Below the pieces are notes generated by a model, which saw only the letters and a program-made list of their open reading frames with translations, was not told the DNA's origin and searched no databases. The position numbers and the translations under genes were made by a program. This document shows positions 3,971 through 57,605 of a DNA stretch of 64,000 nucleotides, one piece after another. The DNA comes from Nibricoccus sp. (GTDB lineage Bacteria; Verrucomicrobiota; Verrucomicrobiia; Opitutales; Opitutaceae), in NCBI GenBank assembly GCA_047602425.1, contig JASGHG010000001.1, forward strand, positions 2,304,001 through 2,368,000, written 5' to 3'. The stretch's first letter is position 1; each line of letters starts with the position of its first letter.

Positions 3971-4009
3971 GCGGAATTTTTCAACAACCAACAAGCAACT
4001 CTAAATTGC

Positions 4010-5581: not shown

Positions 5582-5582
5582 T

Positions 5583-10579: not shown

Positions 10580-10626
10580 TCCAACCCTCATTGCTGAATG
10601 ACGAAAAACTAAATAGACCCTGCAAA

Positions 10627-10655
10627 CGGTTTGTCATCTATTAAATGACAAACCG
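10627..10655. repeat. Palindrome between convergent genes (bidirectional terminator or REP-like element)
   Basis: CGGTTTGTCAT-CTATTAA-ATGACAAACCG: 11-bp arms, no adjacent U tract. Confidence 0.55.
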
Positions 10656-10749
10656 CTTGGGAGAATGCTCCGTCAAAAACTGAAAGTTTAAAGGTTATAC
10701 ATGCTGTCACTTACCCGATCCTGAAGCGCTGGCTAAAGCCGGTCTGGCT

Positions 10750-24464: not shown

Positions 24465-25996
24465 AAATGATCTGGCATATCATGAAAAAAGATCTTCGCG
24501 CCGTCCGGCTGCTCTGGCTGGTGTGGCTCGGGCTGATCGCAGTGCGCATTCCGTGGCTCGTGTTTTATCTGACGACGGCAAACGAGCGAGCGGTGAAACT
24601 ACTCGAGGTGACGAGCATTTTCGCGTTCATTGCGGATATCTTGCTCGTTTTCATGGTGGTGGGAAATGTTGTGCATGAGGATCCGTTACCGAGCGACAAG
24701 GCGTTTTGGGTGACGCGACCGGTGGGCGCCGGGCAATTGTGCGCGGCGAAGCTGCTGACGCTTGTGGTGGTTTGTGTGCTCAGCCCGCTCGTCTTTCTGC
24801 TGCCAACGTGGGCGGTTTTTGGCGTGGATAGCGTCAATATCGTGAGGCTGCTCGCCTACCATGGCGCGCTCAACGGAGGCGCGATGTTGATCGCGTTGTT
24901 GTTTGCGGTGGTTACGCGTAAGGCTGCCACTTATGCGGTGCTCAGCTTGGTGGCGCTGGCTCTGGTCGGTGTAATAGCGACTACGATTGATTCAGGGTTT
25001 GGCATCAGCGTGGCTCGCCGAGCCGTAGCTTACTGGAGTGCTTTGGGAGCGAGTGTTGTCACGGGTGTTTTTGCTGTGGTGCAGCAGTATCTCACGCGAA
25101 ACACGCGGCGAACCTGGTGTTTGCTGGGCGTTTTAGTAGTAGGCATGGGGCTGATTTTGCCGAGCTCCTCGGGAAAAGGAATTTTTCAGCGGAATGTGAA
25201 ATTGTCGCCGACGGAAATTAAGATGAGGGCGGAATGGAAGGACCAGAAACTCGTTTTGACGACCAAGTCCGAAGGCGTGGTGACGGGGTCGATCCAGGTG
25301 GCCAGCGACAGTCAGGTCGGAAGCATTCGATTGAGGTTTTTGCAGGGGAAATGGATTGACCAGCACGGGCTCTCGGAACCGGTTAAAATGATGGAGGGCG
25401 AGAACCAAGACAGCAGGAATTCGTGGATTGAGCTGAGGGCTATCGATTTTGATGCGAGAGAAAAAACTTATCGGTTTCCGGTCAAGCTGCGCCTGCCGGA
25501 TAACATTACTGACTGGGCATCGCTGGGATTCGACGGTCGCGTTGGCATCATTGGCATGAAGCGTGTCAAAATTACCGAGCTGCCGCTGGCTGCCGGGACC
25601 ACCGTGGCGGCCAACGGATTGCATGCGCGTTTATTGGATCTGAAAAACTATGAAAAGGGTGTGACGGCGGTTTTATTACAGGTGACTCCGTTTACAGTGC
25701 CATATGGTAACGGCAGAATCGTGAATATTGATCCCGCGAAGAAGTGGAGTGTGAGCAGCATCGCATACAGAGGTTCGGGGCTGTTGCTGTGGCTCCAGTT
25801 GCAGCGGTTCAATTTGATGTACGGGAAGCATAGCATGCCTCAAACACCTGAGGAGTGGCGTAAAAACAACGTGGGTCCGCAGATCCAGGAAGCGTTGGCC
25901 GAGCAGGGCTGGCGGATCGAGTGGCGAGAATATGCGCCTACTTTTTACGAGGTATGCGAGCTCAAGGCCGAACGACTTGAAATCGCCAAGGAGTGA
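24461..25996 (+). CDS. ABC-2-type membrane permease with C-terminal extracytoplasmic domain
   Basis: Begins MKMIWHIMKKDLR; has the FWVTRP motif and several TM segments; AAGGAAGGAG SD and ATGA overlap with the ATPase stop. Confidence 0.75.
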   Translation: MKMIWHIMKKDLRAVRLLWLVWLGLIAVRIPWLVFYLTTANERAVKLLEVTSIFAFIADILLVFMVVGNVVHEDPLPSDKAFWVTRPVGAGQLCAAKLLTLVVVCVLSPLVFLLPTWAVFGVDSVNIVRLLAYHGALNGGAMLIALLFAVVTRKAATYAVLSLVALALVGVIATTIDSGFGISVARRAVAYWSALGASVVTGVFAVVQQYLTRNTRRTWCLLGVLVVGMGLILPSSSGKGIFQRNVKLSPTEIKMRAEWKDQKLVLTTKSEGVVTGSIQVASDSQVGSIRLRFLQGKWIDQHGLSEPVKMMEGENQDSRNSWIELRAIDFDAREKTYRFPVKLRLPDNITDWASLGFDGRVGIIGMKRVKITELPLAAGTTVAANGLHARLLDLKNYEKGVTAVLLQVTPFTVPYGNGRIVNIDPAKKWSVSSIAYRGSGLLLWLQLQRFNLMYGKHSMPQTPEEWRKNNVGPQIQEALAEQGWRIEWREYAPTFYEVCELKAERLEIAKE

Positions 25997-26008
25997 TCGC
26001 GAGGAACG

Positions 26009-28831
26009 TCAGTTACGCTCCATCAAAGCGTGCAGTCGTGCTTGCAATACGGAGCGGGTGAAGGGCTTGGCGAGGAAGCCGGCGGGTTTGGTTTGGGCGA
26101 ATTTTTCCAACGTGAGTTTTTCGGTGAAGCCGCTCATGAGGATGACGGGGACGGACGGTCTTAACTGTTGCATCGCGACGAAGGTTTCCTCGCCGTTCAT
26201 GCGCGGCATCGTGAGATCGAGCAGCACGAGTTGAAGTTTTTCGGAGTGTTCGCGGAAGCGTTCGACGGCTTCCACGCCGTCGGCAGCGGTGACGGTCGTA
26301 AAGCCAAAGCTTTCGAGCGTTTTTGAGATGACGGTCCGCACGCCCGGCTCGTCGTCGACCACCAGTACGACTCCGGAGCCTCGCCAATTTTCGCTTGTTT
26401 GCCGATCCGGCGCAAAGGGAGGCCGGCTGCACCGCAAATCGGGGAACAAGATTTGGAACGAACTGCCTTGGCCCGGAGTGCTGGATACACGGATGGCCCC
26501 CTTGTGCGATTTGACAGTACCTGCGACCGCGGCGAGGCCCAATCCATGGCCGGTGAACTTGGTGGTATAGAAAGGTTCGAAAATGCGGGCCAGACTTTCC
26601 GGGAGAATTCCACAACCCGTGTCGGCGACCTCAAGCAGCACGTAGGACCCCGATGGCAGCGAGGAGTTTTGAAACTGTGTGCACAGTTCGCCGGTATTCA
26701 GATATTTCGAAACCGTTTTGATGGTGATGCGCCCCTCCTTGTCGCCGATGGCGTCCGAGGCGTTGAGCGTGAGGTTCATGATCACCTGCTGAATTTGAGC
26801 GGGCGCGGCTTTGATGGGAGCCAGCGGATGCGACAATTGCAGGTCGATGACGATCTTTTTCCCGATGGAGACTTGAAAGAGCTGGCGTGTTTCTTTGATG
26901 AGCGCGTTGAGGTCGACTTCTTCGAACGCCAGCGGGCTTCGGCCGGCGTAGGCGAGCATTTGCTGACACAGGGCGGCGGCGCGGGTGGCGGCGTTTTCCA
27001 CCTGGGCTAGTGGTTCGTGAATGGGTGAATTGACCGGCAGGTCGAGGCGCGCTAGGTTGGCATTGCCAAGCATGGTCGCGAGCAGGTTGTTGAAATCGTG
27101 GGCGATGCCGCCGGCGAGAACACCGAGACTTTCGGATTTTTGGATCTGGAGGATTTTGCGTTCCTGTTCGATGCGTTCGGCTTCGGCTTGTTTCTGGCGC
27201 GTGATATCGCGCATGACGATGGAGAGGATCGTCGTGTCGTTGGCTTCGTCGCGATGGGCGAGGGTGACGTGTGAGACGTGGACTTCGCGTCCCTGTGCGC
27301 AATGCAGCGTGAGTTCGCCGTGCGAGGAGCTGGCGCGGAGAGCGGTCCGGATCACTTCGTCGCGAAGAATTTTGGCCGCGGAGTCCTTGAACACGGTTTC
27401 GAGCGGGTGTTGAAACAGTGCGCCGGCGTCCGTGTGGCCGAGCAATTTCAGCAGTGCGCGGTTGGCATATAGAACGTGACCGCTCGCGTCGGCGATCAGC
27501 ACGAAATCGGTGGTAGCGCCGATGATTTCCATCAGGCGCCCTGCCTCGGCTTCGGCAGTTTTGCGCGCGGTGATATCGAGATGGGTGCCCGAAACCTTGA
27601 GCGGTTTACCGCTGGCATCGCGGGCGACAACCGAGCCGCGCGAATAGAGCCAACGCCAGTGATGATCGCGGCCGCGAATGCGATATTCCACATCGTAGAG
27701 GGGAGAACGTCCCTCAATGTGATCCACCAAAGCCTTTCTCATGGACTCGACATCTTCGGGGTGAATCAGTTTTTGCCACGTTTCAAAAAGCGGTTCCAAA
27801 TCTTCCGTCCGATAGCCGAGCATGGCAGCGGAATGTTGGTTTTGGCTGACGTGGCGGGCGGCGATATCGAGGTCCCAAAGGCCGAGTTGTGCTCCCGAGA
27901 TCACCCGATCGAAACGGGCTTCGTTTTTCGCCAGTTTCTTTTCCGCTTCGTTGCGCCGGCTGACAACCGAGCCCAAGCCCAACCCAACGACAGAGACAGT
28001 GAGCTCGAACAAAAGGAAGCTGACGACGGTTGCCGTGTTGCTTCCGACGAGATGCATGCCGATCAGGCTGCCCATGGTGATGGCGAGTGTGGCGAGTGTG
28101 GCACCGCGCAAGCCTTGTTGAAGACAGATCCAGGTGAGGGGCAGGAAGCAGAGATAAAACGCATTGTTGCGGGCGAGCGGTTCCACCGCAAAGACGAGCC
28201 AGATCAGTCCGACGAGGGTCGCGGCCTGGACGGACATCATGGCGACCTCCTTGGAGATGTATTTTTGGTTCGTTGGACGGAAAGCGGGTTTATTTTCCAG
28301 CCATGCGCCCGCAAACACCACCGCAGCCGGAACGACGGTCAGCAGCCCGCTGGCGTCGCCCACCCACCAATTCAAAGCGGAATCCAGAAACGATTCCGGT
28401 CTATTGACTCCCACCAAAAGTAGAAGGCCGGTTCCGGCGATCGCAACGACGGCAGGGCTTCCGACCATGACAACGCCGAAGATCAATGTTTCACGCAAGG
28501 TGCCCGGCAGTAATTTCGTGCCGAGAAAACGCCGGGCGAACCAGGCGGCCCCGGTAAAATTCGCGGTGATCAATGCCGGAAAAATCAACGGTGCCCACCA
28601 CGTGCCGAGACCGGAGGAGGTGCAGATGGCTGTGAGCGCATTGGTGAAAAACACCACCGGCGCATATCGAGGCCCCAGCAAGACCAACAGCGCGAGGGCC
28701 AGGCCGGCGGGAGGATACCAGATTGAAATTCCTGGGCCGACTTCGAAGAAGCGCGCGGAAATATGCGCGGCCAGATGCAAAATCGCATAGGCTGCGCAGA
28801 CGATGACACGCCGTGGGAGCGAAAGATTCAT
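26009..28831 (-). CDS. Hybrid sensor histidine kinase (MASE1-PAS-PAS-HisKA-HATPase-REC)
   Basis: IWYPPAGL membrane domain, IHPED PAS, GGIAHDFNNLL H-box, DTGCG and FYTTK..GHGLGL ATP boxes, VVDDE and LLDLTMP receiver motifs. Confidence 0.93.
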   Translation of the reverse strand: MNLSLPRRVIVCAAYAILHLAAHISARFFEVGPGISIWYPPAGLALALLVLLGPRYAPVVFFTNALTAICTSSGLGTWWAPLIFPALITANFTGAAWFARRFLGTKLLPGTLRETLIFGVVMVGSPAVVAIAGTGLLLLVGVNRPESFLDSALNWWVGDASGLLTVVPAAVVFAGAWLENKPAFRPTNQKYISKEVAMMSVQAATLVGLIWLVFAVEPLARNNAFYLCFLPLTWICLQQGLRGATLATLAITMGSLIGMHLVGSNTATVVSFLLFELTVSVVGLGLGSVVSRRNEAEKKLAKNEARFDRVISGAQLGLWDLDIAARHVSQNQHSAAMLGYRTEDLEPLFETWQKLIHPEDVESMRKALVDHIEGRSPLYDVEYRIRGRDHHWRWLYSRGSVVARDASGKPLKVSGTHLDITARKTAEAEAGRLMEIIGATTDFVLIADASGHVLYANRALLKLLGHTDAGALFQHPLETVFKDSAAKILRDEVIRTALRASSSHGELTLHCAQGREVHVSHVTLAHRDEANDTTILSIVMRDITRQKQAEAERIEQERKILQIQKSESLGVLAGGIAHDFNNLLATMLGNANLARLDLPVNSPIHEPLAQVENAATRAAALCQQMLAYAGRSPLAFEEVDLNALIKETRQLFQVSIGKKIVIDLQLSHPLAPIKAAPAQIQQVIMNLTLNASDAIGDKEGRITIKTVSKYLNTGELCTQFQNSSLPSGSYVLLEVADTGCGILPESLARIFEPFYTTKFTGHGLGLAAVAGTVKSHKGAIRVSSTPGQGSSFQILFPDLRCSRPPFAPDRQTSENWRGSGVVLVVDDEPGVRTVISKTLESFGFTTVTAADGVEAVERFREHSEKLQLVLLDLTMPRMNGEETFVAMQQLRPSVPVILMSGFTEKLTLEKFAQTKPAGFLAKPFTRSVLQARLHALMERN

Positions 28832-29139
28832 GATCCAATGATCAGCGTAATCGTCGCAGGGAACCGGCTGGAATGCGGCCTGCCTGCTTGCACGGAGCTG
28901 GGGCGGCGTGAAGCAGCGAAAACGTTGAGGAAATTCAGCATTGGAATTGTGAAGCTAACCATGGTGTCGGTCGAGCAAGAACACCTCGCACGGCATTCGT
29001 CACAACCGCATCACAACTCCACCGTAAAATTAAAGAATCCAGCGGCTTACCCGCCGCGCTGCGCTGGCCACGAGTTACGACAATAGACCCGTCCACAAGG
29101 GTCGCGGACGCAGTGTAAGCTAAAGCGCTGGCCCGCGGG

Positions 29140-30633
29140 TTACGGGCTTTGGTTCTTGCCGTTATGACAATCGGCGCAGGTGAGATCGTCAGGCAGCGCG
29201 TCGGGGTGTTTGAAGGGCTGGCCTTCAGGGGCGAGCTTGCTGAGTTCGGCGCCGGCGCCTTGGGCGAGAATGGTGTGGCAGGCGTTACAATCGCTGGCGG
29301 CGATCTTTTTCTCAGGTTTGCCGACCGCAACGTGTTGATTGTCGTGGCAACGGAAACAGCCAAGCCAGTTTTTGTGGCCGATTTGTTCCGGATACTTGCT
29401 CCAGTCGGCCTTCATGTGCGGGAAGAAATTATCCTTGTAGATAGTGGTTGCAGTAGCGACGGCCTGCTGCACGGACGGTTTGTCGCCGTATTGCTTGCGC
29501 AGGCCGGCCTCGATCGCGGCGAGGGCCTCCGGCTCGGTGGCGTATTCCTTGGTGAGCAAGTCGACGACGTTCCGCTTGATCGCGGGAAGCTTTGAATCGA
29601 GGCGGCCGAGATAGATCGCCTGGTCGACGGCCTCGTTGGGAGGCTGGAAGCGGTGGGCGGGTCGGTTATGGCAATCAAGGCAGTCCATCCGGCGGATTTT
29701 CGCGGGGTCAGGCTGCCCTTTGAATTCGGCGCTCGCATAAACCGTGGCGGTGCCGTCTGGTTTGGTGACGCGGACCCACGGGATTTTCTGGCGTTGCTCG
29801 TCCTCGGCGTAGTATTCGACGACGTTTTCCTTGCTGGTATGCCAGTGAATGCCGGAAACGTGGCCGTGCTTGGCGTCGCCGCCGCCCACGTGAAGGAGCA
29901 AACGGACGGTGAACGGCTTGTTATCGTCGGTAGTGGCGAGCGTGTGCTGATAGGTACGCTCAAGATTGCCGGAGAAGCGCTGCGGCCAATGACATTTTTC
30001 GCAAGTGTCCTGGGCGGGGCGGAGATTGGCGATGGGAGTTGGTACGGGGCGCTTGAAGTCGCCGGTGATGACACCGAGAAGCTGGTGGGCGCCACGCATC
30101 TTGGATTTAAAATAAAAGGAGGCGCCGGTGCCGACGTGACATTCGACACAGGAAACGCGGGCATGGGCGCCGTTTTGATAAGCGACAAATTCGGGCTTCA
30201 TCGTCTCGTGGCAGACCTGGCCGCAGAAGGCGACGGTTTCCGTGAGGTGGTAGGTTTGGTAGCTGCCGAGCGCGGTGAAGAGGAGAAACGTCATCGTGCC
30301 CAAGGCGAACCAGAGGAGGCGCTTGCGGTCGCGTGGATTTTCTAGATCGATGGCGAGTTGTGGAGGCGGCGCTTCGGGATCACGCCGTTGCTGGCGGCGG
30401 CTGAGCCAAGCTCCAAAGAACAGCAGGGCGAGGCCGAGGAGCAGAAAGCCCGGGGCGACGACGTAGGAAAGGATGCCGACGTAAGGGTTGCTGTGATCGC
30501 CGGCAAATGTATCGAAGGCAAAGAGCAGGAGGAAAGCGAAGAAACTGCCGATGGCACAAACGGCACCCGAGAGGCTGATCCAGTTACGCCAAATGGAGCG
30601 TTTGAGGGGAATCGGTGCGGCGGTATTGGTCAT
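29140..30633 (-). CDS. Inner-membrane multiheme cytochrome c, NapC/NirT-domain (ImcH-like), 7 heme motifs
   Basis: Three N-terminal hydrophobic helices; FCGQVCHETM (CX3CH) plus CVECH, CEKCH, CLDCH, CFRCH, CNACH and CADCH. Confidence 0.85.
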   Translation of the reverse strand: MTNTAAPIPLKRSIWRNWISLSGAVCAIGSFFAFLLLFAFDTFAGDHSNPYVGILSYVVAPGFLLLGLALLFFGAWLSRRQQRRDPEAPPPQLAIDLENPRDRKRLLWFALGTMTFLLFTALGSYQTYHLTETVAFCGQVCHETMKPEFVAYQNGAHARVSCVECHVGTGASFYFKSKMRGAHQLLGVITGDFKRPVPTPIANLRPAQDTCEKCHWPQRFSGNLERTYQHTLATTDDNKPFTVRLLLHVGGGDAKHGHVSGIHWHTSKENVVEYYAEDEQRQKIPWVRVTKPDGTATVYASAEFKGQPDPAKIRRMDCLDCHNRPAHRFQPPNEAVDQAIYLGRLDSKLPAIKRNVVDLLTKEYATEPEALAAIEAGLRKQYGDKPSVQQAVATATTIYKDNFFPHMKADWSKYPEQIGHKNWLGCFRCHDNQHVAVGKPEKKIAASDCNACHTILAQGAGAELSKLAPEGQPFKHPDALPDDLTCADCHNGKNQSP

Positions 30634-30661
30634 GGCAATTTTCGGCTGGTGCTAAAACGTT

Positions 30662-30688
30662 GAAGGGCGTGCTTAATGCCCGCCCTTC
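30662..30688 (-). terminator. Intergenic hairpin in the cytochrome cluster
   Basis: GAAGGGCG ... CGCCCTTC stem between the monoheme gene and the ImcH-like gene; no strong U tract. Confidence 0.45.
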
Positions 30689-30713
30689 GTGTATTCAAAT
30701 TATGGTGACTAGG

Positions 30714-31031
30714 TTATTTCTTCAGTGTGCGAATGAAGGCGACCAGACCTTTGACATCGTCATCGGGGAGGTCGCTGAAGGCTTTCATCTTTTCTTTGTC
30801 ACCGTCTTTGACGCCTTCCTTGATGGCCTTGAACATGGCTTCGTCGGTCATCTCGGCTTGGACTTTGGCGTCGGTATAGTCCTTGAGTTTCAGTTTGGCG
30901 CCGACCTTGGTTTTACCGGCACCGTCAGCACCGTGGCATTTGGCGCACTGGGCGGTCCAAATTTCAGAAGCGGGTGCAGCGAAGGCGGAGGTGGCGGCAA
31001 AGGCGAGGAGAGCGAGGGCGAGTTTTTTCAT
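30714..31031 (-). CDS. Periplasmic monoheme cytochrome c (class I, probable His/Met)
   Basis: Signal peptide ending SAFA, CAKCH motif, distal KMKAF Met. Confidence 0.9.
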   Translation of the reverse strand: MKKLALALLAFAATSAFAAPASEIWTAQCAKCHGADGAGKTKVGAKLKLKDYTDAKVQAEMTDEAMFKAIKEGVKDGDKEKMKAFSDLPDDDVKGLVAFIRTLKK

Positions 31032-31083
31032 AGGGAACAGACGTTTTTATCGGGCCTATTAGATGGTTCGTTTTTGGGTCTGC

Positions 31084-31120
31084 AAAACCCCGCGTCATTC
31101 GGAGGAACAAGCGCGGGGTT
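31084..31120 (-). terminator. Intrinsic terminator-like hairpin between the two monoheme genes
   Basis: Minus strand reads AACCCCGCG-loop-CGCGGGGTTTT. Confidence 0.6.
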
Positions 31121-31168
31121 GATGCGATTTAAGATGCTATATACGTATCGGATTGTACAGCCGGACCT

Positions 31169-31501
31169 TTATTTTTTCATGGCGCGAATATACGCCACAA
31201 GGGCTTTGGCATCGGCTTCCGTGAGGTCTTCTTTAAAACCTTTCATCAGCTCTTTGCCGTCCTTGGTCGAACCTTCGAGCGTGACTTTCAGCAGGTGCTC
31301 GTCCGTGAACTTCGCTTGCACCGCTGCGTCAGTGTAATCGAGGACTTTGAGTTTCTGCCCCATCTTGGTTTTGCCGGAGCCGTCAGCGGCGTGGCATTTG
31401 GAGCAAAGACTATCCCAGTTTTCCTTGGCCTCGGCGGCGAAGGCTGAAGTGGCGATCAGCAAGCCGACACTGAGGAAGGTGCACGCGATAGATTTTTTCA
31501 T
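31169..31501 (-). CDS. Periplasmic monoheme cytochrome c (paralog of 30714-31031)
   Basis: Signal peptide ending SAFA, CSKCH motif, LMKGF Met; shares ADG.GKTK.G.KLK..DYTDA.VQA..TDE with its neighbour. Confidence 0.9.
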   Translation of the reverse strand: MKKSIACTFLSVGLLIATSAFAAEAKENWDSLCSKCHAADGSGKTKMGQKLKVLDYTDAAVQAKFTDEHLLKVTLEGSTKDGKELMKGFKEDLTEADAKALVAYIRAMKK

Positions 31502-31522
31502 CGGAGTGAATGGGACTGTTTT

Positions 31523-33739
31523 TTAGAAACCCTGCTGGAGCGTGAGGTAGGCGAGGTAGCCGGAGTAGTTGGTATTGCCACCGGTCGAACCAACTTTGCT
31601 GCTGAGATAACCGACTTTGGCTTCGGCGACGAGGTTGTCGCTGAGCTTGCGTTTCACACCGACGGTGACGGTGTAATCGTCCTGGCTGGCTCCGAGAGCG
31701 GTCGTGGCGTAGAGCGGTTCGTAATTGGAGGCCTTGTAACGGGTGTATTGCAGTTCGGCGTTGGTAACCTTGTCGAGCACGACACCGGTAATAGCGCTGG
31801 CGGTCCAGTGGTTGTTGTCGGCGTTGCGGAGAACGTCGTTGGCGGCGCCACCGGCGCGAGGATAGGCGGTGCTGGTGGTATCGAACACTAGATCGACGTT
31901 GGCCTGGGCGTAGAATTGTTTGATGGGCGTCCAGTCGACGGTGACACCGAAATCATGGCTCTTGAAGTCCATGCTCTGGTATTTTTCTTCGAAATCGACG
32001 GCGGTATCCATCTCGCCATCTCTGCCAACATAGCGGCCGGTGACGGTGAGGGTGGGAAGAACCTTCACGATGCCGGTGAGTTTCTTGGCGGTGTATTCGT
32101 AGCCGAGCACGTACTGGCCACCGACGCTGGTGCCGTAGCCGGTATAGCTATTACGGTGATCCTTGTAGAACACTTCAGCACGGAGCGTGAAAGCGGCACA
32201 GGCATTCCAGTTGGCACCAACCTTGTAATGGCCGTGGTTTTCCTTGGCGTTGTTGAAGCTGGCTGCGAGGCTGGGTCCAACGGTGCCGGAGGCGCCGCTA
32301 CCGACCGTAGTGACGCTGACGCTGGATCCGATTTCGTCGCCGGTCACATAACGGTAGTCCACCGTGGTGTAGAGGGAAACGTTGCGAATGCCGGTGTAGC
32401 GGACGTTGAGTTCGGGCGTCCAGGAACGTTCGCTACGCTCCGCGGTATTGGGTGCGTCAATTGGTATGCTGGTCGAAACGCCCGTGGCTTGAATGAGACG
32501 GGTGTTTTTGTAGACGACCTGATTGTTGCCCTCCATGTCGAGGTCTTCGCCCTTGAGGCCAAGGCTAACATAGAGATCTTTGGTCGGCTTGTAGCTGGCG
32601 CAAAGGTTGGCGGTAAGGACATCCTGCGTCGTATCGCCGGCGAGCGTGGTGTAAGAGTAGGGAGGACGACCGCCAGGAGTGAAGCCGCCGAGAAGATCCT
32701 GAACGCCGGTGCCCGTGGCGATCTTGAGGAACATCTGGCGATCGCCGCCGATTTTGGCGGTGGCGTGTTGGAAGCTAACGCCGCCGTGGAGACCGATTTT
32801 GCTGGTCAGCTGGGTTTCGAACTTGCCGGTGTAGGTGATGATCTTCGGTTCGCTCATTTGGCGGTCGAAGCCGTAAACCGGGTTGTTGGCGAGCGCGGGA
32901 GGAACGAGCGTGGCCGGTGTGGCGGGAATGGCGACGAGGGGCTTGAGTTCGCCGGGATAGCGGTTCACCCAACGGGTGTCGTCGCTTTTTGCGGTGACGT
33001 AAACAGCTTCGAGTTCGACAGTCGTGTTGCCGAAACTGTGCTTGAGCGCGGCTTCGAAGGTTTCCTGGCGCTCGTTCAAGTCGATGTACGAGGCGACGAT
33101 TTTGCGGTTGGCGGAGACTGGGTTCAGCGCGCTGCTGGACCAAATCGGCACGCCGGTGAAATCGGTATCGCCCCAGATCGTGGTGTCCTTGCTGCCGTTG
33201 CGCAGTTCATTCGTGTAGCGCAGCGTAAGAACCGGGAGGTTGGGCAACGTAATCGCGCCGCCCACCCAGAATTTCGAGCGGTCGACGTGGCGGACCTGAG
33301 CGGTCAGAGGGAACCAAGCGTTGTTGGTCGGAAAGAAACCGCCCACACCATCGTAATAGGTGCGAAAACGCTTGTAGCCCATGTCGAACGAGCCGAGTTC
33401 GTTTTTCGAAATCTTAACCTGACCGAGGAAGTCTTGGTTGCCCAAAAGAGCATGGCCGTCGACCGTGAGGCCGAAGTCGTTGCCGAGATCTTTGGTGATT
33501 TGGAAATCCTCAATGCCGGCAAAACCTTCGCGAGCGGTCCAGGTTCTGGCTTCATAGGCGGCCTTGTCGCCGCTGATCCAGCTGCCCTGACCTGAGAGCT
33601 TGATGTAGTTCTCGGTGATGTTGGGCAGCGGATCCGTATCGGGTTTGACGGCGTCGGCGGCATATGCGCTGACGGCCGTAGCCAGAATCGCACCTGCAAA
33701 GAGACCTGAAGCAATAGGGGAATGAAGTTTGGTTTGCAT
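31523..33739 (-). CDS. MtrB/PioB-like outer-membrane beta-barrel porin
   Basis: Signal peptide from ATG 33739, about 740 aa of alternating amphipathic strands, C-terminal LTLQQGF; directly downstream of an MtrA-like cytochrome. Confidence 0.75.
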   Translation of the reverse strand: MQTKLHSPIASGLFAGAILATAVSAYAADAVKPDTDPLPNITENYIKLSGQGSWISGDKAAYEARTWTAREGFAGIEDFQITKDLGNDFGLTVDGHALLGNQDFLGQVKISKNELGSFDMGYKRFRTYYDGVGGFFPTNNAWFPLTAQVRHVDRSKFWVGGAITLPNLPVLTLRYTNELRNGSKDTTIWGDTDFTGVPIWSSSALNPVSANRKIVASYIDLNERQETFEAALKHSFGNTTVELEAVYVTAKSDDTRWVNRYPGELKPLVAIPATPATLVPPALANNPVYGFDRQMSEPKIITYTGKFETQLTSKIGLHGGVSFQHATAKIGGDRQMFLKIATGTGVQDLLGGFTPGGRPPYSYTTLAGDTTQDVLTANLCASYKPTKDLYVSLGLKGEDLDMEGNNQVVYKNTRLIQATGVSTSIPIDAPNTAERSERSWTPELNVRYTGIRNVSLYTTVDYRYVTGDEIGSSVSVTTVGSGASGTVGPSLAASFNNAKENHGHYKVGANWNACAAFTLRAEVFYKDHRNSYTGYGTSVGGQYVLGYEYTAKKLTGIVKVLPTLTVTGRYVGRDGEMDTAVDFEEKYQSMDFKSHDFGVTVDWTPIKQFYAQANVDLVFDTTSTAYPRAGGAANDVLRNADNNHWTASAITGVVLDKVTNAELQYTRYKASNYEPLYATTALGASQDDYTVTVGVKRKLSDNLVAEAKVGYLSSKVGSTGGNTNYSGYLAYLTLQQGF

Positions 33740-33750
33740 GGCGTGGGATG

Positions 33751-34560
33751 TTAGTAGCGCATCGCTTTGCTGGCGTTGGAACCGTGGACGTCTTCGTGGC
33801 AGCCGGCGACCCAGCAGGTGCCGTTCTGCATGCGAGTGCGGTGATCTTCGCCGCCGGCAACAATCTTGCCGTCGCCGACGAACCCGCCGGTCAAAGTGGC
33901 CGGGTGTTCGACGTGACACTTGAGACACAGATTGGAATCGCGCTGGACGAGCATCTTTTGATTCACCGAACCGTGCGGGTTATGGCAGACGGTGCAGCCT
34001 TCGACCATGGCGTTGTGTTTGAAAAGGAAAGGACCCTTCTGGGCCGTATGGCACTTGGTGCAGGTCTCGTTGGGCGTTTCAAGTTCGCCGGCTCCGGTGC
34101 GGGCGACAACGTTGCCCTTGTGCGGATCGTGACACTCGGTGCAGGTCATTTTGCCAGCCATGACGGGATGGCTGTGCGGGAGGCTGAACTCGCCGCGCTT
34201 GTCGAGATGGCACTGGAAGCAACCTTCAGGCGTTTTGCCAGGGTTGATGATGGTGCCTTTGCCGCCGCCTGCCTGGACGTGCTTGCTGCCGGGACCATGG
34301 CAGCTTTCGCAGCCGAGGCCCTTGGCATGTTCGCCCTGCACCATCAATTTGGCGTGGGAAGCCGTGTCGAAATGCTTGGTGGTTTCTTCATGGCATTGGG
34401 CGCACTCTTGCGCGCCGACGAACGTGGCGCCGGCGATCTGGGCCGGAGCGACGACCGTGCGATCGCCCATGACAGTGCAGGAGATAAGGAGTGCAGCCCA
34501 AAGGGTGATGCCTCCGAAGACGAGTGTGTTCTTGGGCCAGCTGCGCGATTTAGATATCAT
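33751..34560 (-). CDS. MtrA/DmsE/PioA-like multiheme cytochrome c (8 heme motifs), probable lipoprotein
   Basis: FVGAQECAQCH, CESCHGPGS.H, CFQCH, SHPV..GKMTCTECHDPH, NETCTKCH..KGPF, CTVCHNPHGS, LCLKCH, CWVAGCH..VHGSN; lipobox LISC. Confidence 0.88.
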   Translation of the reverse strand: MISKSRSWPKNTLVFGGITLWAALLISCTVMGDRTVVAPAQIAGATFVGAQECAQCHEETTKHFDTASHAKLMVQGEHAKGLGCESCHGPGSKHVQAGGGKGTIINPGKTPEGCFQCHLDKRGEFSLPHSHPVMAGKMTCTECHDPHKGNVVARTGAGELETPNETCTKCHTAQKGPFLFKHNAMVEGCTVCHNPHGSVNQKMLVQRDSNLCLKCHVEHPATLTGGFVGDGKIVAGGEDHRTRMQNGTCWVAGCHEDVHGSNASKAMRY

Positions 34561-35077
34561 GATAGGTTCGGCAAAGGTTATTTTGCAGAGGCATGGGGTG
34601 GCTATAACGGTTTGTTAGGGGCACAGACTTTGCCAGAAAACTGGCGAACTGGCTCCTCATTTCTTGCTGAAAATCGCTTCAATAAAGAAAAGTTATTGGT
34701 CTGATTTACAAATGAGCCTGAGGGTATTCCCTATTTTTGTCACCCATTTTTTGACAGGTCCGGGCCGCCAACTCGTTGAACTAAAGGATGGCTAATGCCC
34801 TGGTTTTACAAACACCCACGCGGTTTTTTCGTTGAAAAATCGTATTTGGCCAACCGGGTGTATTCTTAAATGTAATACGCCGGTTCAGGGGCGGTTTTCG
34901 ACAGCGATTTGGCAGGTGGCATATGGTTCCCGTTGGTCGGCACCGCTTCCCTTGGCCGTGGGATGGGTTTCTTGCTTTGGGAAAATGAATCGCTCGGCGC
35001 GCGGCGGAATGGTTTTGCGGAAAAATCCTGCCACTCGGGCTTGCGCCTTTCGCGCGTGCTGTGCTTAACCGCCAGGC

Positions 35078-35689
35078 GTGGACAATCCCGCTCGCACCGC
35101 TGAATATATCGCCCGTCGCGCCGCCCGCTGCGACGATCTTAAACGCACCCTGACCGGGCTGCTTGCCGGGCGGAAGCGCATCACGCTGGAAATCGGCGCG
35201 GGACACGGGCATTTTCTGACCGACTACGCGACGGCGCATCCCGAGGAGTTTTGCATTGGCGTCGATATCGTGCGCGATCGGGTGGAACGCGCGACGCGAA
35301 AGCGTGACCGCGCAAAGCTGTCGAACCTCGTTTTTCTTCTCGCGGAAGCCGGCGAATTTCTCGGCGCGTTGCCGGCGGATGTCGCATTTCAGCGCGTTTT
35401 CGTGCTTTTCCCGGATCCTTGGCCGAAACGCCGACATCACAAAAACCGGCTTATGCAGGCGGAGTTTCTTAGCACCATCGCCACCCGCGCAGAAAAAGCC
35501 GCGCACCTTTGCTTCCGGACCGACCACGCGGCGTATTTTGCGGCGGCGAAGGCGGAAGTTTTGGCGCATCCGGATTGGGAGGTTTTGCCCGAAGCGCCCT
35601 GGCCGTTCGAGCGCGTGACAGTTTTTCAGAGTCGAGCGCCAGCCTATGAATCGCTGGTCGCGGCAAGGCGGTCGGACGCCGCGAAGTAA
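35078..35689 (+). CDS. trmB: tRNA (guanine-N7)-methyltransferase
   Basis: LEIGAGHG, FPDPWPKRRHHKNRL and FRTD motifs. Confidence 0.9.
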   Translation: MDNPARTAEYIARRAARCDDLKRTLTGLLAGRKRITLEIGAGHGHFLTDYATAHPEEFCIGVDIVRDRVERATRKRDRAKLSNLVFLLAEAGEFLGALPADVAFQRVFVLFPDPWPKRRHHKNRLMQAEFLSTIATRAEKAAHLCFRTDHAAYFAAAKAEVLAHPDWEVLPEAPWPFERVTVFQSRAPAYESLVAARRSDAAK

Positions 35690-35924
35690 TATCGGAGATG
35701 GCTGCGGTTGTCGGCTGAAACGCCTGCTCCGCCGAAAATAAAAACGTTAACCACGGCGCGTTCGTGCCGTTAGTAGATTTTTTGTTAGCTCCAGCCTCAA
35801 TTTTTCCACATTGGCTAATCTTTTAGCCCACATAAGCCCTTTGCATTTTCGAAGGTTGACGCTCCTGCGTGCGTTGCTTACTTCAAAACCTTTTCCAACT
35901 CTAAACAGGCCTCTCCCAAAAACC

Positions 35925-36809
35925 ATGCTTCGTGCGAAGAACCTCGCCCTGATCGCCGCATCTTTGGCCACTGCCATGTCTTCGTTCGCAGCTGAAGGCG
36001 AAGGGGTTTCAGCCAAGGTCGCCGTGCTGGTCGATTTTGGCGGCGGTTGGGCGCTCACCAACAGCATGATGACGGGTTGGGCGGTTTCGGCGCTGATTAT
36101 CTCTCTTATATTAGTGCTGGTGGGCAAACCTCAGGTGCTGCCCTCCAAAGGCCAGGCGGTGATCGAGTCGCTGATCGAAGGGCTGCGCGGACTTTTCGAA
36201 CCCATCGTGGGCAAAAAAGCTTTCCCCGCCGTTTTCCCGCTACTCGTTACGTTCTTCATTTTCATCCTCATCCAGAACTGGATGGGTCTTCTGCCCGGCG
36301 TCGGTACGATCGGCTTCGGTCACGATGTCGAAGGCAAATTTCACATGACGCGGCCGTTCATCCGTCCTTTCACGGCTGACTTCAACGGCACCATTGCGCT
36401 CGCGCTGATTTCCTTCGGCGCTTGGTTGATCATCATCTTCAAATATGCAGGGCCGAAGCTGATTCTCTTCGATCTTTTCGGTAACAAGGCCGACAAAAAG
36501 GAGACACCTGTCGTCCTCTATTTCGTGCTTTCGATTGTTTTCCTGTTGGTCGGCTTCATCGAAGTTTTCTCGATCTGTATCCGCCCCTTCACGCTGTCTG
36601 TGCGTCTCTTTGGCAACATCTTTGGCGGTGAAAACCTCCTTCATGGAACGGGTTTCTTTTTTGTCTTCTATTTCATGGAGCTGCTCGTCGGCCTGATTCA
36701 AGCCACGGTTTTCACGCTCCTTAGCTCCGTCTATATCGGTTTGATGTGTAACCACGGCGACGACCACGAGCACGAAGGCGAACACGTCCAAACTGAATCC
36801 CACCACTAA
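35925..36809 (+). CDS. atpB: F0 ATP synthase subunit a
   Basis: NWMGLLP, IRPFTLSVRLFGNI (essential Arg), IQATVFTLL. Start placed at ATG 35925. Confidence 0.93.
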   Translation: MLRAKNLALIAASLATAMSSFAAEGEGVSAKVAVLVDFGGGWALTNSMMTGWAVSALIISLILVLVGKPQVLPSKGQAVIESLIEGLRGLFEPIVGKKAFPAVFPLLVTFFIFILIQNWMGLLPGVGTIGFGHDVEGKFHMTRPFIRPFTADFNGTIALALISFGAWLIIIFKYAGPKLILFDLFGNKADKKETPVVLYFVLSIVFLLVGFIEVFSICIRPFTLSVRLFGNIFGGENLLHGTGFFFVFYFMELLVGLIQATVFTLLSSVYIGLMCNHGDDHEHEGEHVQTESHH

Positions 36810-36881
36810 ACCCTTTACCGCCGGGAGCGTGCCAACGAGTGCGCACGGCGGCAACTGCAACCTCCAAACATATCCAATAAC

Positions 36882-37097
36882 ATGATCCTCGCTGAAGCTG
36901 TTAACGCCATTACCGGCAATCTCGCTAGCGCATTCGGTCTTCTCGGCGCCGCCATCGGCGTCGGTTTGATCGGCACCAAAGCCGCCGAAGCCGTCGGCCG
37001 CAACCCCGGCGCCTCGGGCAAAATCCTCGTTCAAGCCATCATCGGTATGGCGCTCGCCGAAGGTCTCGGCGTTCTCGCGCTGTTCCTCGCCAAGTAA
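36882..37097 (+). CDS. atpE: F0 ATP synthase subunit c (H+-type)
   Basis: GxAIGVG, GRNP loop, MALAEGL; the Na+-type Q/ES/T signature is absent. Confidence 0.93.
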   Translation: MILAEAVNAITGNLASAFGLLGAAIGVGLIGTKAAEAVGRNPGASGKILVQAIIGMALAEGLGVLALFLAK

Positions 37098-37160
37098 GAA
37101 TCCCTTCCCTGGTTGCGCTGCCTAAACCTCAGCGCAACCAACCTCTTTTCCGCTCCCGCC

Positions 37161-37724
37161 ATGCTGACCTCACTTTTCCTCGCAGTTGCCGAAGCCCACG
37201 GCGCCGTTGCCGGCGCGGCCGAACCTGGCCTCGTTGAAAAATTCGGCATCGAGTGGCACTACGTCGTTTTCCAAGGCATCAGTTTCCTCATTCTCTTTGG
37301 CGTGTTGTACAAGTTCGGCATCAAGCCGACGATCACCGCCATGGAGGAACGTCAGCATAAAATCGACTCCGGACTCAAGTATGCCGAGCAGATGAAGTCT
37401 CAACTCGCCTCCTCGCAGCAGGAGACGGCCGCCCTCCTCAAGAACGCTCAGCTCGAAGCCACCCGGATCATCGAAGAGTCCCGCAAAACCGCGAAGGATT
37501 TTGCCGACAAGGTTCAAAAAGAATCCACCGAGCGCGCCGCCGACCAGCTCGCCAAGGCCCAACAGGCCATCGAACTCGAGCACAAGAAAATGCTCGCCGA
37601 CGCCCGCAGCGAAATCGCCCGCCTTGTCGTCACCACGACCGAACGCGTCCTCGCCAAGAAGCTTTCCGACGCCGATCGCGCTGGCTTCAACGAAGCCGCC
37701 GCCAAAGAACTCTCGTCGGTCTGA
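37161..37724 (+). CDS. atpF: F0 ATP synthase subunit b
   Basis: TM segment followed by KP...MEERQHKI and a long coiled coil; operon position. Confidence 0.92.
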
Positions 37725-37745
37725 TCGCAAATTTCCCTCTAGAAA

Positions 37746-38138
37746 ATGGCCGCCAACAAACAAGTCCAGCAACTCGCCCGTCAGCTCTTTAACCTGAGCT
37801 TCGCCGACGGCCAGCTGTCGGCCGCGCGGGTCAGCGGCGTATTGGGCTACGTCGAGAAAACCAAGCCCGCGCATACGCTCGCCGTCCTCAAGACCTACCA
37901 CCGCCTCGTCGCAAACGAATTGGCGAAAAGCCAGGCCGTCGTTGAGCACGCCGGCGCAGTATCCGATTCTTTGTTACAAACCATCGCGGCCGCCATGACT
38001 ACGAAGTACGGCCGCACGATTGCCGCCACCGCCCATCCCAATCCGAAACTCCTCGCCGGCCTGCGTGTACGCGTCGGCGACGACGTATACGAATCCTCCG
38101 TCGCCGGTCAGCTGAGTCAGCTCGCCGCCCAAGTATAA
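37746..38138 (+). CDS. atpH: F1 ATP synthase subunit delta (short form)
   Basis: [19 protein letters not shown]-terminal OSCP motif; operon position. Confidence 0.88.
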
Positions 38139-38169
38139 CCCTTTTAAACAACCAAAACCTCTCGCCCGC

Positions 38170-39696
38170 ATGAGCACGGTCATCGAACAAATCGAACAAC
38201 AGATCGCCAAACTGCAGAACAAAGCGGTTAAAAAGAACACCGGCACCATCCGCACCGTCGCCGACGGCGTGGCCAAGCTCGATGGCCTCTCCGAGGTCAT
38301 GTACAACGAGATGGTCCAGTTTCCCGGCGGCGCCATCGGCATCGCGCTCAACCTCGAAGAAGACGAAGTTGGCTGCGTCGTCCTTGGTGACGTTGCTGGC
38401 CTCAAGGAAGGCGACGAAGTCCAGACCACGGGCCGCCTCCTCTCCGTACCCGTCGGCAAGGCGCTCCTTGGCCGCGTGGTCGACGCGCTCGGTCGTCCGG
38501 TCGACGGCAAAGGTCCGATCGACTCCAAGGAATTTTACCCGGTCGAAAAGATCGCCCCCGGCATCATCGTCCGCAAATCCGTTACCCAACCACTCTTTAC
38601 CGGTATTACCGCGATCGACTCCATGATCCCGATCGGTCGCGGCCAACGCGAGCTCATCATCGGCGACCGCGGCACCGGCAAGACGACTATCGCGATTGAT
38701 ACCATCATCAACAACGCGCGCATCAACCGCGTCGGCCTGGCTTCGGGCGACAAATCCTTCCGTCCCGTCTATTCGATCTACGTCGCGATTGGCCAAAAGA
38801 ATTCCAACATCGTCCGCACCATGACCGCCCTCGAGGCGGCTGGCGCGCTTGAATACACCATTATCGTCGCCGCCCCTGCGGCCGACAATCCCGCTAACCA
38901 GTACCTTGCACCATACTCAGGCGCCGCCATGGGCGAATGGTTCATGGAAAATGACATGGACGCGCTGATCGTTTACGACGATCTCTCGAAGCACGCCGTC
39001 GCCTACCGCCAGATTTCGCTGATTCTGAAACGTCCCTCCGGCCGCGAAGCTTTTCCCGGCGACGTTTTCTATCTCCACAGCCGCCTCCTCGAACGCGCCG
39101 CCCGCCTCGCTGGCAAAGGCTCGCTCACCGCGCTGCCCATCATCGAAACCCTCGCGGGCGATCTCGCGGCGTACATTCCGACGAACGTCATTTCGATCAC
39201 CGATGGCCAGATCTTCCTCGAAACCGACCTCTTCAACCAAGGCATCCGTCCTGCGGTTTCCGTCGGTCTCTCCGTTTCGCGCGTCGGTTCCTCCGCGCAG
39301 ATCAAGGCCACCAAACAGGTCGCTGGTAAACTCAAGGGCGAGCTCGCCCAGTTCCGCGAACTTGCCGCTTTCGCTCAGTTCGGTGCCGATCTGGACGCCA
39401 AGACCAAAGCCCAGCTCGACCGCGGTTCCCGCATCGTCGAACTCTTCAAGCAACCGCAGCTCAACCCGATCTCGATCGAGCTTCAGGCCGCCTTCCTCTG
39501 GGCCATGCAGAAGAATTATTTCGACGGCATCGACGTGAAAAAAATCGTCGCCGCCGCCGCCAAGCTCCGCGAATTTTTCGCCACCCGCAAGCAGCCGCTT
39601 CTCGACAAGATCCGCAACAAGGCCGCCATCGACGCCGAGCTCGAAACCGAGCTCAAGGCCGCCTGCGACGAGTGGAAATCTTCCTTCACTGCTTGA
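38170..39696 (+). CDS. atpA: F1 ATP synthase subunit alpha
   Basis: [17 protein letters not shown] and [20 protein letters not shown] motifs. Confidence 0.97.
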
Positions 39697-39715
39697 GCAA
39701 GCGCTGACCTAACCC

Positions 39716-42024
<2,309 letters not shown>

Positions 42025-42612: not shown

Positions 42613-42857
42613 TTTCGGCAATGCCTCGGGGCTTGCCCCGAGGATCTTTACTGGAGTAGCCCCGGCGGCCATTTCCGACTTTGCCGGGTTTTTTGTGCCT
42701 ATTGTCTGGTCTCGCTTTTTCCGACGCGACGGCCAATCTCCCGACTAATAAAGTCGGTCCACGAGCGTAGGGTAATGTGCAGGCCGCAGTGATCCGCCGC
42801 GGCCCGGCTTTTTTGCCACGCGTCACGTCATCACCTCATAGCCTTTCGGGAACCGCC

Positions 42858-57597: not shown

Positions 57598-57605
57598 AGG
57601 AAAAA

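Follow-up and report, generated by a model that had tools for sequence, protein, structure and literature searches.

Verrucomicrobial gene clusters that set a porin beside a multihaem cytochrome were described by He et al. (2017; mSphere, PMC5615132) from metagenome-assembled genomes (MAGs) of Trout Bog, from Opitutus terrae PB90-1, from Opitutus sp. GAS368 and from others; the MAGs came from anoxic humic water, and the authors proposed that the clusters transfer electrons to humic substances. These clusters have since been taken up again (PMC6344600; preprint 10.1101/2020.04.01.018762). For this phylum, the earliest report of dissimilatory iron reduction dates from 2026 and concerns Limisphaera, whose porins were called unrelated to MtrB (PMC13608581). 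An inward electron path has been proposed for the Pio system of Rhodopseudomonas and for the Mto system of Sideroxydans (for the latter, PMC13390432), in which a His/Met monohaem cytochrome, PmcA, bridges MtoA and ImoA (PMC13390432). The ImcH of Geobacter is described as a menaquinol oxidase that feeds periplasmic cytochromes (bioRxiv 10.1101/2023.05.03.539133), and a supplementary table of Zhong & Shi (2018; PMC6295460) lists an Opitutus terrae homologue of it, Oter_2584. In this report, we analyse a locus of Nibricoccus sp. (Opitutaceae) at positions 29140-34560 of a 64,000-nt window of contig JASGHG010000001.1. By the window we mean the whole of that stretch, in which positions are numbered. 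The locus consists of five genes, called here cytA, barrel, c1, c2 and ImcH-like, whose products resemble parts of several of these systems (Table 1).

The five genes most likely form one operon for a porin-cytochrome conduit. We read this conduit as one that carries electrons from menaquinol to acceptors at or outside the cell surface, and we assign this outward reading, taken as a whole, a probability of about 0.6. The original prediction, an earlier note on the same DNA, had proposed a hybrid that combines an Mtr/Mto-type barrel with a Geobacter-type inner-membrane module. Each part of that proposal is supported by the present analysis, but its novelty was overstated, given the reports of He et al. 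and of Zhong & Shi and an arrangement that is common in the family. The locus is thus not new in kind: both the cluster of a porin with an eight-haem cytochrome and an Opitutus ImcH homologue are already in print. Added here are the recognition of cytA as an MtrA homologue that lacks haems 3 and 4, a predicted MtrB fold for the barrel, a conserved lipobox, a fixed pairing of a monohaem c gene with the ImcH-like gene, and linkage at the level of whole genomes.

Components of the proposed conduit

The haem motifs of cytA are seven of the CXXCH type (CAQCH, CESCH, CFQCH, CTECH, CTKCH, CTVCH and CLKCH) and a last one of the CX4CH type (CWVAGCH). The protein matches 6r2q_A, the MtrA chain of the entry titled "Structure of the Mtr complex" (the molecule name that the depositors gave to chain A is evidently an error), at E 2.2e-31 in two stretches that span query residues 48-263. 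The check by the decahaem DmsE/MtrA model that the original prediction had named was answered in part: TIGR03508 matches cytA at E 2.1e-46, but the score of 158.5 bits stays under the curated cut-off of 192.2. For the nearest Geobacter-named model, the GSU2203 family decahaem of NCBIfam, the score is 172.1 and the cut-off 325. Among 1.84 billion representatives searched, 4891 matched at E <=0.001; the nearest are 240-280 aa long, and the next group, of 300-340 aa, is matched in two stretches. In an alignment of 11 eight-haem and 24 ten-haem proteins, the eight-haem class is without motifs 3 and 4, whereas each of its eight motifs shares an alignment column with one of the remaining motifs of the ten-haem class, an assignment that carries some risk because the cytochrome family is internally repeated. 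Judged by its sequence, cytA is a true MtrA/DmsE homologue, its score under the family cut-off notwithstanding.

Seven CXXCH and one CX3-4CH motif are kept in all 50 cytA-family open reading frames (ORFs) from the window and related loci. Forty-nine of the 50 also have a lipobox-like motif that ends in an invariant Cys before the first haem, as counted with a pattern slightly wider than [LVI][ASTVI][GAS]C, the lipobox found at the end of signal peptides cleaved by signal peptidase II. The residue that follows the Cys is V in 30, T in 8, M in 4, I in 3, S in 2, E in 1 and L in 1, and is never Asp. cytA is predicted to be a lipoprotein, presumably anchored in the inner leaflet of the outer membrane. 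The original prediction had missed this lipobox.

The barrel protein belongs to no Pfam or NCBIfam family (Pfam was searched at E <=0.01 and again at E <=1), and a profile of 34 barrel sequences gave 0 matches at E <=10 among PDB sequences. PF11854 (MtrB_PioB), a model named for checking in the original prediction, was found in one of 34 relatives (E 6.3e-5) and gave no match for the window protein. An AlphaFold (AF2) model built from the 34-sequence alignment (predicted local distance difference test, pLDDT, 82.6; predicted TM-score, pTM, 0.76) has 26 strands of at least 10 residues, beginning at residue 45, and no N-terminal plug domain. Its top Foldseek match is MtrB (6r2q_B, E 2e-13, TM 0.58/0.65), with TonB-dependent receptors at ~0.45. 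VIA-align likewise places 6r2q_B first, with Z 23.9 and a root-mean-square deviation of 4.1 A over 568 aligned residues (model 42-738); the runner-up, at Z 17.2, aligns only from residue 114. The number of strands in MtrB is reportedly also 26, as in the paper on 6R2Q. The only Cys residues of the barrel are 380 and 514, so it has no N-terminal CXXC, a motif typical of the MtrB of metal reducers; a related remark on the MtrB CXXC is found in PMC13608581. The protein is predicted to fold as a 26-strand plugless barrel that is MtrB-like by predicted fold and not by sequence.

Barrel residues 36-738 (with alignment) were co-folded with cytA 40-269 in three runs, together with 3 controls. The score for predicted interaction (ipSAE) was 0.88, 0.89 and 0.90 (median 0.89), and the best of the 3 controls scored 0.00; of 157 solved complexes 116 attain the mark that this complex attains, and of 215 mismatched pairs 2 do so. 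The models contain 367-373 contacts, with a contact agreement between runs of at least 79% and a partner pLDDT of at least 74. Contact residues alternate along nearly all of the barrel strands, the cytA side of the interface covers residues 63-269, and the cytochrome lies within the lumen. cytA is predicted to thread through the barrel lumen; the structure prediction that the original prediction had suggested as a check yields a barrel that accommodates its cytochrome.

The inner-membrane end of the proposed conduit is the ImcH-like protein. Its hydrophobic segments, at about 18-45, 50-78 and 106-124, all precede the haem motifs; the corresponding AF2 helices (18-43, 50-84 and 100-131) come from a poor model (pLDDT 59.2, pTM 0.34). 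The haem sites are CGQVCH, of the CX3CH type, at 137 and CXXCH at 162, 211, 318, 426, 449 and 486. PF03264 (NapC/NirT) covers residues 106-194 with 50 bits against a cut-off of 24.1, as the original prediction's hidden-Markov-model check anticipated, and the NrfH model TIGR03153 matches at E 8.1e-11. Homologues of ImcH have been defined by three transmembrane helices, a CX3CH beside the membrane and CXXCH motifs, six in the Geobacter group (PMC6295460); the pattern of CX3CH plus six CXXCH is present in 27 of 27 ImcH-like relatives. In G. sulfurreducens ImcH, H137, Q179, E127, K173 and Y188 are reported to be conserved around the quinol site (bioRxiv 10.1101/2023.05.03.539133). E132, H142, K178 and Q184, which are invariant in all 27 ImcH-like ORFs, equal the published E127, H137, K173 and Q179 at a constant offset of +5 that is taken from motif positions and not from an alignment. 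At position 193, the equivalent of Y188, 24 of the 27 have Tyr and three, the window protein among them, have Phe. Matches to PDB sequences are weak (best E 0.057; NrfH, 2j7a_C, E 0.091), and those in a protein atlas are generically named NapC/NirT clusters, mostly from Acidobacteriota. Architecture and, as far as the offset holds, signature residues support the view that the 497-aa protein is probably of the ImcH type.

The two monohaem cytochromes, c1 and c2, share 56% identity. The Met of a "K-E-x-M-K" motif is conserved in at least 90% of 46 c1/c2 relatives, which makes His/Met ligation likely. The best PDB sequence match of c2 is Kuenenia c-552 (5mxy_A, E 1.1e-7), and both proteins give weak CcoP-type matches. 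No MtoD chain is present among the 20 PDB sequence matches of c2, MtoD being a protein that presumably has a PDB entry. The notion that His/Met ligation in c1 and c2 signals a high potential, and with it inward flow, was dropped in view of the potentials given for Sideroxydans, where the His/Met PmcA lies at about -143 mV and the bis-His MtoD at +155 mV (PMC13390432).

The same genes are linked in other genomes. cytA directly precedes the barrel gene in all eight related loci and in all 40 stretches around barrel matches of the family sample, some of which duplicate the first eight loci. There are two barrel types: type 1 is that of the window, and type 2 is 24% identical to it over the full length. 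Within the fetched +/-7 kb, an ImcH-like gene was found in 13 of 30 type-1 loci and in 9 of 10 type-2 loci, and a monohaem c gene stands directly upstream of the ImcH-like gene in 22 of 22 loci. Among 151 family genomes, which are related and so not independent, a barrel match is present in 71 and an ImcH-like match in 63. The two occur together in 62 genomes; 9 genomes have only the barrel, one, which is 75% complete, has only ImcH, and 79 lack both. Of the 63 ImcH-positive genomes, 42 have the ImcH-like gene no more than 5 kb from a barrel gene and 43 no more than 10 kb from one. The synteny across relatives that the original prediction had proposed to examine is thus present, both in the adjacency of cytA and barrel and in the co-occurrence of barrel and ImcH-like genes. 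In the phylum, the barrel profile matches 20 of 301 sampled genomes, and 13 of these 20 are among the 26 genomes sampled from the window's family.

Some relatives show variations on the arrangement. In one genome (G050), contig C127 has two type-1 cytA-barrel pairs with about 20 kb between them (L023, 10327-12498, and L024, 31039-33243), and the ImcH-like gene of this genome is on a different contig. In some other loci a CbcL-like protein with 13 haems and a cytochrome b lies beside the pair; this was confirmed with Pfam in L022 and L025, and ORFs of CbcL-like size are found beside the pair in L026, L029 and L041 as well. About ten related loci (L028, L032, L035, L041, L042 and L043 among them) have, near the pair, a tetrahaem ORF of ~220 aa after a monohaem c gene. 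These ORFs were considered as CymA-type quinol dehydrogenases and rejected, since all four that were scanned gave c3/c7-type Pfam matches and no NapC/NirT; the protein may be an alternative periplasmic carrier.

At the locus itself, the intergenic gaps from cytA through barrel, c1 and c2 to ImcH-like are 11, 21, 137 and 80 bp. The barrel reading frame stays open as far as a GTG at 33928. The ATG at 33739 is the likely start, because a signal peptide follows it and because barrel homologues are 669-761 aa long in 120 of 120 cases among the matches listed. The five genes are real and not chance frames, since each has many homologues and the gene order recurs in relatives; the GC content of the locus is not distinct from that of neighbouring DNA. 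No further ORF with at least three CXXCH occurs in window positions 25001-38000, and thus the cluster has no MtrC/OmcA-type gene. The original prediction had named this absence, and its account of the individual genes was accurate as well: all five are present and co-oriented on the minus strand, with an MtrA-like cytochrome of eight haem motifs, a beta-barrel of ~740 aa that ends in Phe (...LQQGF), two periplasmic monohaem cytochromes and an ImcH-like NapC/NirT protein with three transmembrane helices and seven haem motifs. Its placing of the host near the Opitutae agrees with best matches to Opitutaceae.

Table 1. Features of the proposed conduit locus and its flanks, in window positions
Feature	Position	Strand	Description
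cytA	33751-34560	-	269 aa; octahaem MtrA/DmsE-like cytochrome c; lipobox LLISC (Cys28), predicted lipoprotein
barrel	31523-33739	-	738 aa from ATG; signal peptide; no haem motif; predicted 26-strand plugless MtrB-like barrel
c1	31169-31501	-	110 aa; monohaem class I cytochrome c, CSKCH; signal peptide; PF13442/PF00034
c2	30714-31031	-	105 aa; monohaem class I cytochrome c, CAKCH; signal peptide; PF13442/PF00034
ImcH-like	29140-30633	-	497 aa; 3 transmembrane helices, CX3CH + 6 CXXCH; predicted menaquinol dehydrogenase
Palindrome-like motif TTTATTG-N12-CAAGAAA	34660-34686	-	candidate operator, ~100 nt 5' of the cytA start
Two terminator-like hairpins	29040-29110	-	just 3' of the ImcH-like stop; possible operon end (weak)

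Direction of electron flow and competing explanations

In the outward reading, the ImcH-like protein would oxidise menaquinol at a site beside haem 1 (E132, K178 and Q184) and hand the electrons to c1 and c2, which would act as periplasmic shuttles to haem 1 of cytA. From there, cytA would pass them, where the barrel opens to the outside, to acceptors in soluble or colloidal form such as humic quinones, chelated Fe(III) or Mn(IV), a transfer for which no MtrC-type surface cytochrome would be needed. The outward direction is the least certain step; we agree here with the original prediction, which held that direction cannot be read from sequence. We favour outward flow because ImcH is known as a quinol oxidase, because the gene content of the host is organotrophic and because the described clusters come from anoxic humic water.

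Several points weigh against this reading or against the support claimed for its parts. The barrel lacks a match to MtrB/PioB sequence models, whether in Pfam, in NCBIfam or by profile against the PDB, and PF11854 detects a single relative. The complex score may be a memory of the solved MtrAB (6R2Q), and the haems are absent from the model. The correspondence of ImcH residues depends on a constant offset, the window protein has Phe193 in place of Tyr, and the AF2 model of this protein is of low confidence. The genome co-occurrence counts overstate their statistical support, and the nine barrel-positive genomes without an ImcH-like match mean that ImcH is not obligatory. The function of the verrucomicrobial clusters is called unverified in a preprint (10.1101/2020.04.01.018762). 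The gene logic also resembles that of Mto, an uptake pathway (PMC13390432), and the genome contains three haem-copper oxidase subunit I (COX1) loci and one bd oxidase that could take incoming electrons.

The last two of these points belong to the strongest competing explanation, which we nevertheless consider unlikely, namely that the conduit works in the opposite direction. The donors would then be extracellular Fe(II), reduced humics or minerals, and their electrons would enter via cytA and pass through c1 and c2 to the cytochrome c oxidases, or via the ImcH-like protein to quinones. The combination of a porin-cytochrome pair, two monohaem cytochromes c and a NapC/NirT-type protein is that of the mto cluster with its MtoD, PmcA and ImoA (PMC13390432), and a surface cytochrome of the MtrC type is missing here as it is in MtoAB and PioAB. 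Further, class I monohaem cytochromes c are the usual donors of oxidases, a role with which the CcoP-type matches of c1 and c2 would agree. However, the host looks organoheterotrophic, with many glycoside hydrolases, and has no obvious use for electron flow in reverse; quinol oxidation is the only role to which ImcH has so far been linked (PMC6295460; bioRxiv 10.1101/2023.05.03.539133); and the described clusters are reported from anoxic humic water (PMC5615132). Bidirectional use may be compatible with these objections.

Another possibility, which seems improbable to us, is that the conduit is not respiratory and serves Fe(III) reduction for iron acquisition, the dumping of excess reductant or metal detoxification without supporting growth. 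Only ten ORFs of the genome have at least three CXXCH; typical dedicated metal reducers have far more multihaem ORFs than this. No decahaem MtrC/OmcA-type candidate is found among those ten, so that a surface decahaem cytochrome for contact with minerals is missing, and ImcH is reported to be electroneutral in Geobacter (bioRxiv 10.1101/2023.05.03.539133). Yet a respiratory branch is what the tight linkage, across genomes, to a quinol dehydrogenase and a dedicated shuttle would fit, the host has a second quinol dehydrogenase that is CbcL-like, and another verrucomicrobial genus grows by Fe(III) respiration, though with porins called unrelated to MtrB (PMC13608581).

It is very improbable that the barrel serves as an ordinary transporter, be it a substrate porin or a TonB-dependent receptor, and happens to lie beside periplasmic cytochromes with no wire across the outer membrane: the lack of an MtrB/PioB sequence match and the TonB-dependent receptors at ranks 2 to 50 of the fold searches would allow it, but the model has no plug (a plugged receptor was the outcome that the original prediction had named as fatal to its claim) and 26 strands rather than 22, MtrB stands 6.7 Z above the next match and aligns over model 42-738 where TonB receptors align from ~114 onward, on which grounds a TonB receptor was rejected, and cytA is adjacent in 48 of 48 loci and scores 0.89 in the complex against 0.00 for the best of 3 controls.

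Host genome, putative second conduit and neighbouring genes

The outward reading, to which we now return, draws further support from the gene content of the host, whose genome is complete (5.16 Mb; 99.97% complete by marker genes). The ResB and CcsA-type genes of System II cytochrome c maturation lie side by side in it, a positive answer to a check that the original prediction had listed. MenD scores above its cut-off in the genome, and MqnA was not found there.

A second conduit cluster, paralogous to the first and missed by the original prediction, is located at G000:C1:3725128-3728365 of the same genome (8093-11405 of locus L009, minus strand). It comprises a cytA paralogue (52% identical, with lipobox), a type-2 barrel of 695 aa that shares 24% identity with the window barrel, and a single monohaem c, without an ImcH-like gene; the single ImcH-like gene of the genome may serve both conduits. 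Upstream of this cluster are genes for an OmpR-type regulator, a histidine kinase and a 415-aa protein without a Pfam family, and downstream is PEPCK. Elsewhere (G000:C1:2812848-2815109; 4849-7110 of locus L010, plus strand), the genome encodes a CbcL/MtrH/MtoC-like protein of 753 aa with 13 CXXCH and a C-terminal cytochrome b561. Like Geobacter, the host thus has candidate quinol dehydrogenases of both the ImcH and the CbcL type.

The palindrome-like motif upstream of cytA (Table 1) has no second match in the 5.16-Mb genome, in which ~0.07 would be expected, and three loci from the same genus, L001, L017 and L021, conserve it. The L001 version is a perfect inverted repeat, ATTTATTGC-N11-GCAATAAAT. 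A word TTGTAAA(G) recurs further upstream in all four sequences, that is, in the window and in the three loci. No FNR- or CRP-type box was found upstream of cytA in the window at <=2 mismatches. As to the hairpins at the other end of the locus, a consensus scan gave 19 sites in the region against 12.3 +/- 2.9 in shuffles.

Downstream of the cluster, 308 bp past the ImcH-like gene, the minus strand encodes a hybrid sensor kinase of 940 aa (MASE1, two PAS, HisKA, HATPase and receiver domains) at 26009-28831. It was considered as a part of the cluster and rejected, as relatives do not keep it at this place and L001, L017 and L021, the loci of the same genus, contain no long match to it. Divergently upstream of the cluster, on the plus strand, lie a TrmB-type methyltransferase gene (35078-35689) and an F-type ATP synthase operon (35811-40579). 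Farther along, genes for a 2025-aa bacterial alpha-2-macroglobulin (42777-48854), a 470-aa Fic-domain protein (48952-50364) and a 1227-aa SNF2-family helicase (50517-54200) stand close together. The stretches 2291-13475 and 55903-57723 hold genes for GH35/42-like, GH43, GH115 and GH8 enzymes, an MFS sugar transporter, a LacI regulator and a PL4 rhamnogalacturonan lyase. These glycoside hydrolase and PL4 genes fit the polysaccharide-degrading host of the original prediction. As to its description of the cell as PFOR-bearing, none of the 27 window ORFs scanned is a PFOR, but a PFOR-type frame lies just past the right edge of the window. The match, at G000:C1:2369725-2370030, is inside a 1242-aa frame on the minus strand, and the earlier remark probably rests on the tail of this frame at the window end.

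Significance and comparison with known systems

It is possible, and we offer it tentatively, that about four in ten of the sampled Opitutaceae carry a self-contained respiratory module in which a lipid-anchored octahaem relative of MtrA sits in a barrel of MtrB fold, with a dedicated monohaem cytochrome c that couples it to a quinol dehydrogenase of the ImcH kind. If this is true, abundant polysaccharide degraders of soil and freshwater would be humic and metal respirers and not fermenters, and an Mtr-type conduit could be built from a wire that is shorter and tethered to the membrane, with the surface cytochrome left out. In soils, peat, rice paddies and lakes, Opitutaceae are common degraders of carbohydrates. 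Should the module work in the way proposed, some of their electrons would end up on humics or iron instead of in fermentation products; a diversion of carbon from methanogenesis has been argued for by He et al. (PMC5615132). The complete genome, with its second conduit and CbcL-like protein, is a compact, testable system for the connection of ImcH to a conduit and for the replacement of PpcA or STC by a monohaem cytochrome. It also serves the question of whether an eight-haem, lipid-anchored relative of MtrA can span an MtrB-type barrel without MtrC.

The clusters of He et al. (PMC5615132) are alike in having a porin, with at least 20 predicted strands, beside a cytochrome with eight conserved haem sites. 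These authors call their system not homologous to those of Shewanella and Geobacter, whereas cytA is here a homologue of MtrA and the barrel has a predicted MtrB fold. They call the cytochrome periplasmic, whereas cytA has a lipobox, and the available part of their text names no inner-membrane partner, whereas ImcH-like and monohaem c genes are linked to the pair here. Our literature search found no paper that links ImcH to a verrucomicrobial conduit, although Figure 7 of He et al. may draw an inner-membrane gene. The Pcc conduit of Geobacter (OmaB/OmbB/OmcB) is likewise a porin-cytochrome conduit with an eight-haem cytochrome on the periplasmic side (PMC5615132), but neither the cluster nor the genome has a gene for a 12-haem lipoprotein of the OmcB type.

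With MtrAB of Shewanella (6R2Q), the locus shares a homologous cytochrome, a barrel whose model is closest to MtrB, and a cytochrome gene directly before the barrel gene. cytA differs from Shewanella MtrA in having eight haems and not ten, motifs 3 and 4 being missing, and in a last motif of the CX4CH type; the Shewanella protein has a plain signal peptide, unlike the lipobox-bearing cytA. The barrel, in contrast to that of Shewanella, is undetected by PF11854 and has no N-terminal CXXC, no MtrC/OmcA is present, and the inner-membrane partner is of the ImcH type rather than CymA.

The Mto system of Sideroxydans lithotrophicus ES-1 (MtoA, MtoB, MtoD, ImoA and PmcA) follows the same logic of one gene cluster without MtrC (PMC13390432). 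The parts differ: MtoA is decahaem and cytA octahaem; ImoA is a tetrahaem NapC/NirT protein (PMC9600427), whereas the window protein is heptahaem with three transmembrane helices; and MtoD is bis-His, whereas c1 and c2 keep a conserved Met. The hosts differ as well, Sideroxydans being an autotrophic Fe(II) oxidiser and the window host a polysaccharide degrader.

The ImcH-like protein, finally, agrees with Geobacter ImcH in its three N-terminal transmembrane helices, its CX3CH and six CXXCH, its length of ~500 aa and its NapC/NirT similarity around transmembrane helix 3 and the first haems. Its haem sites at 137, 162, 211, 318, 426, 449 and 486 are paralleled in Oter_2584 by sites at 120, 144, 193, 299, 408, 429 and 467. 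In Geobacter, ImcH feeds trihaem PpcA-type cytochromes and has no adjoining porin-cytochrome pair. Zhong & Shi report ImcH homologues only from Fe(III) reducers and also state that no mtrAB or mtoAB lies beside any imcH (PMC6295460). In the family studied here, by contrast, the barrel gene is found within 5 kb of the ImcH-like gene in 42 of 63 genomes.

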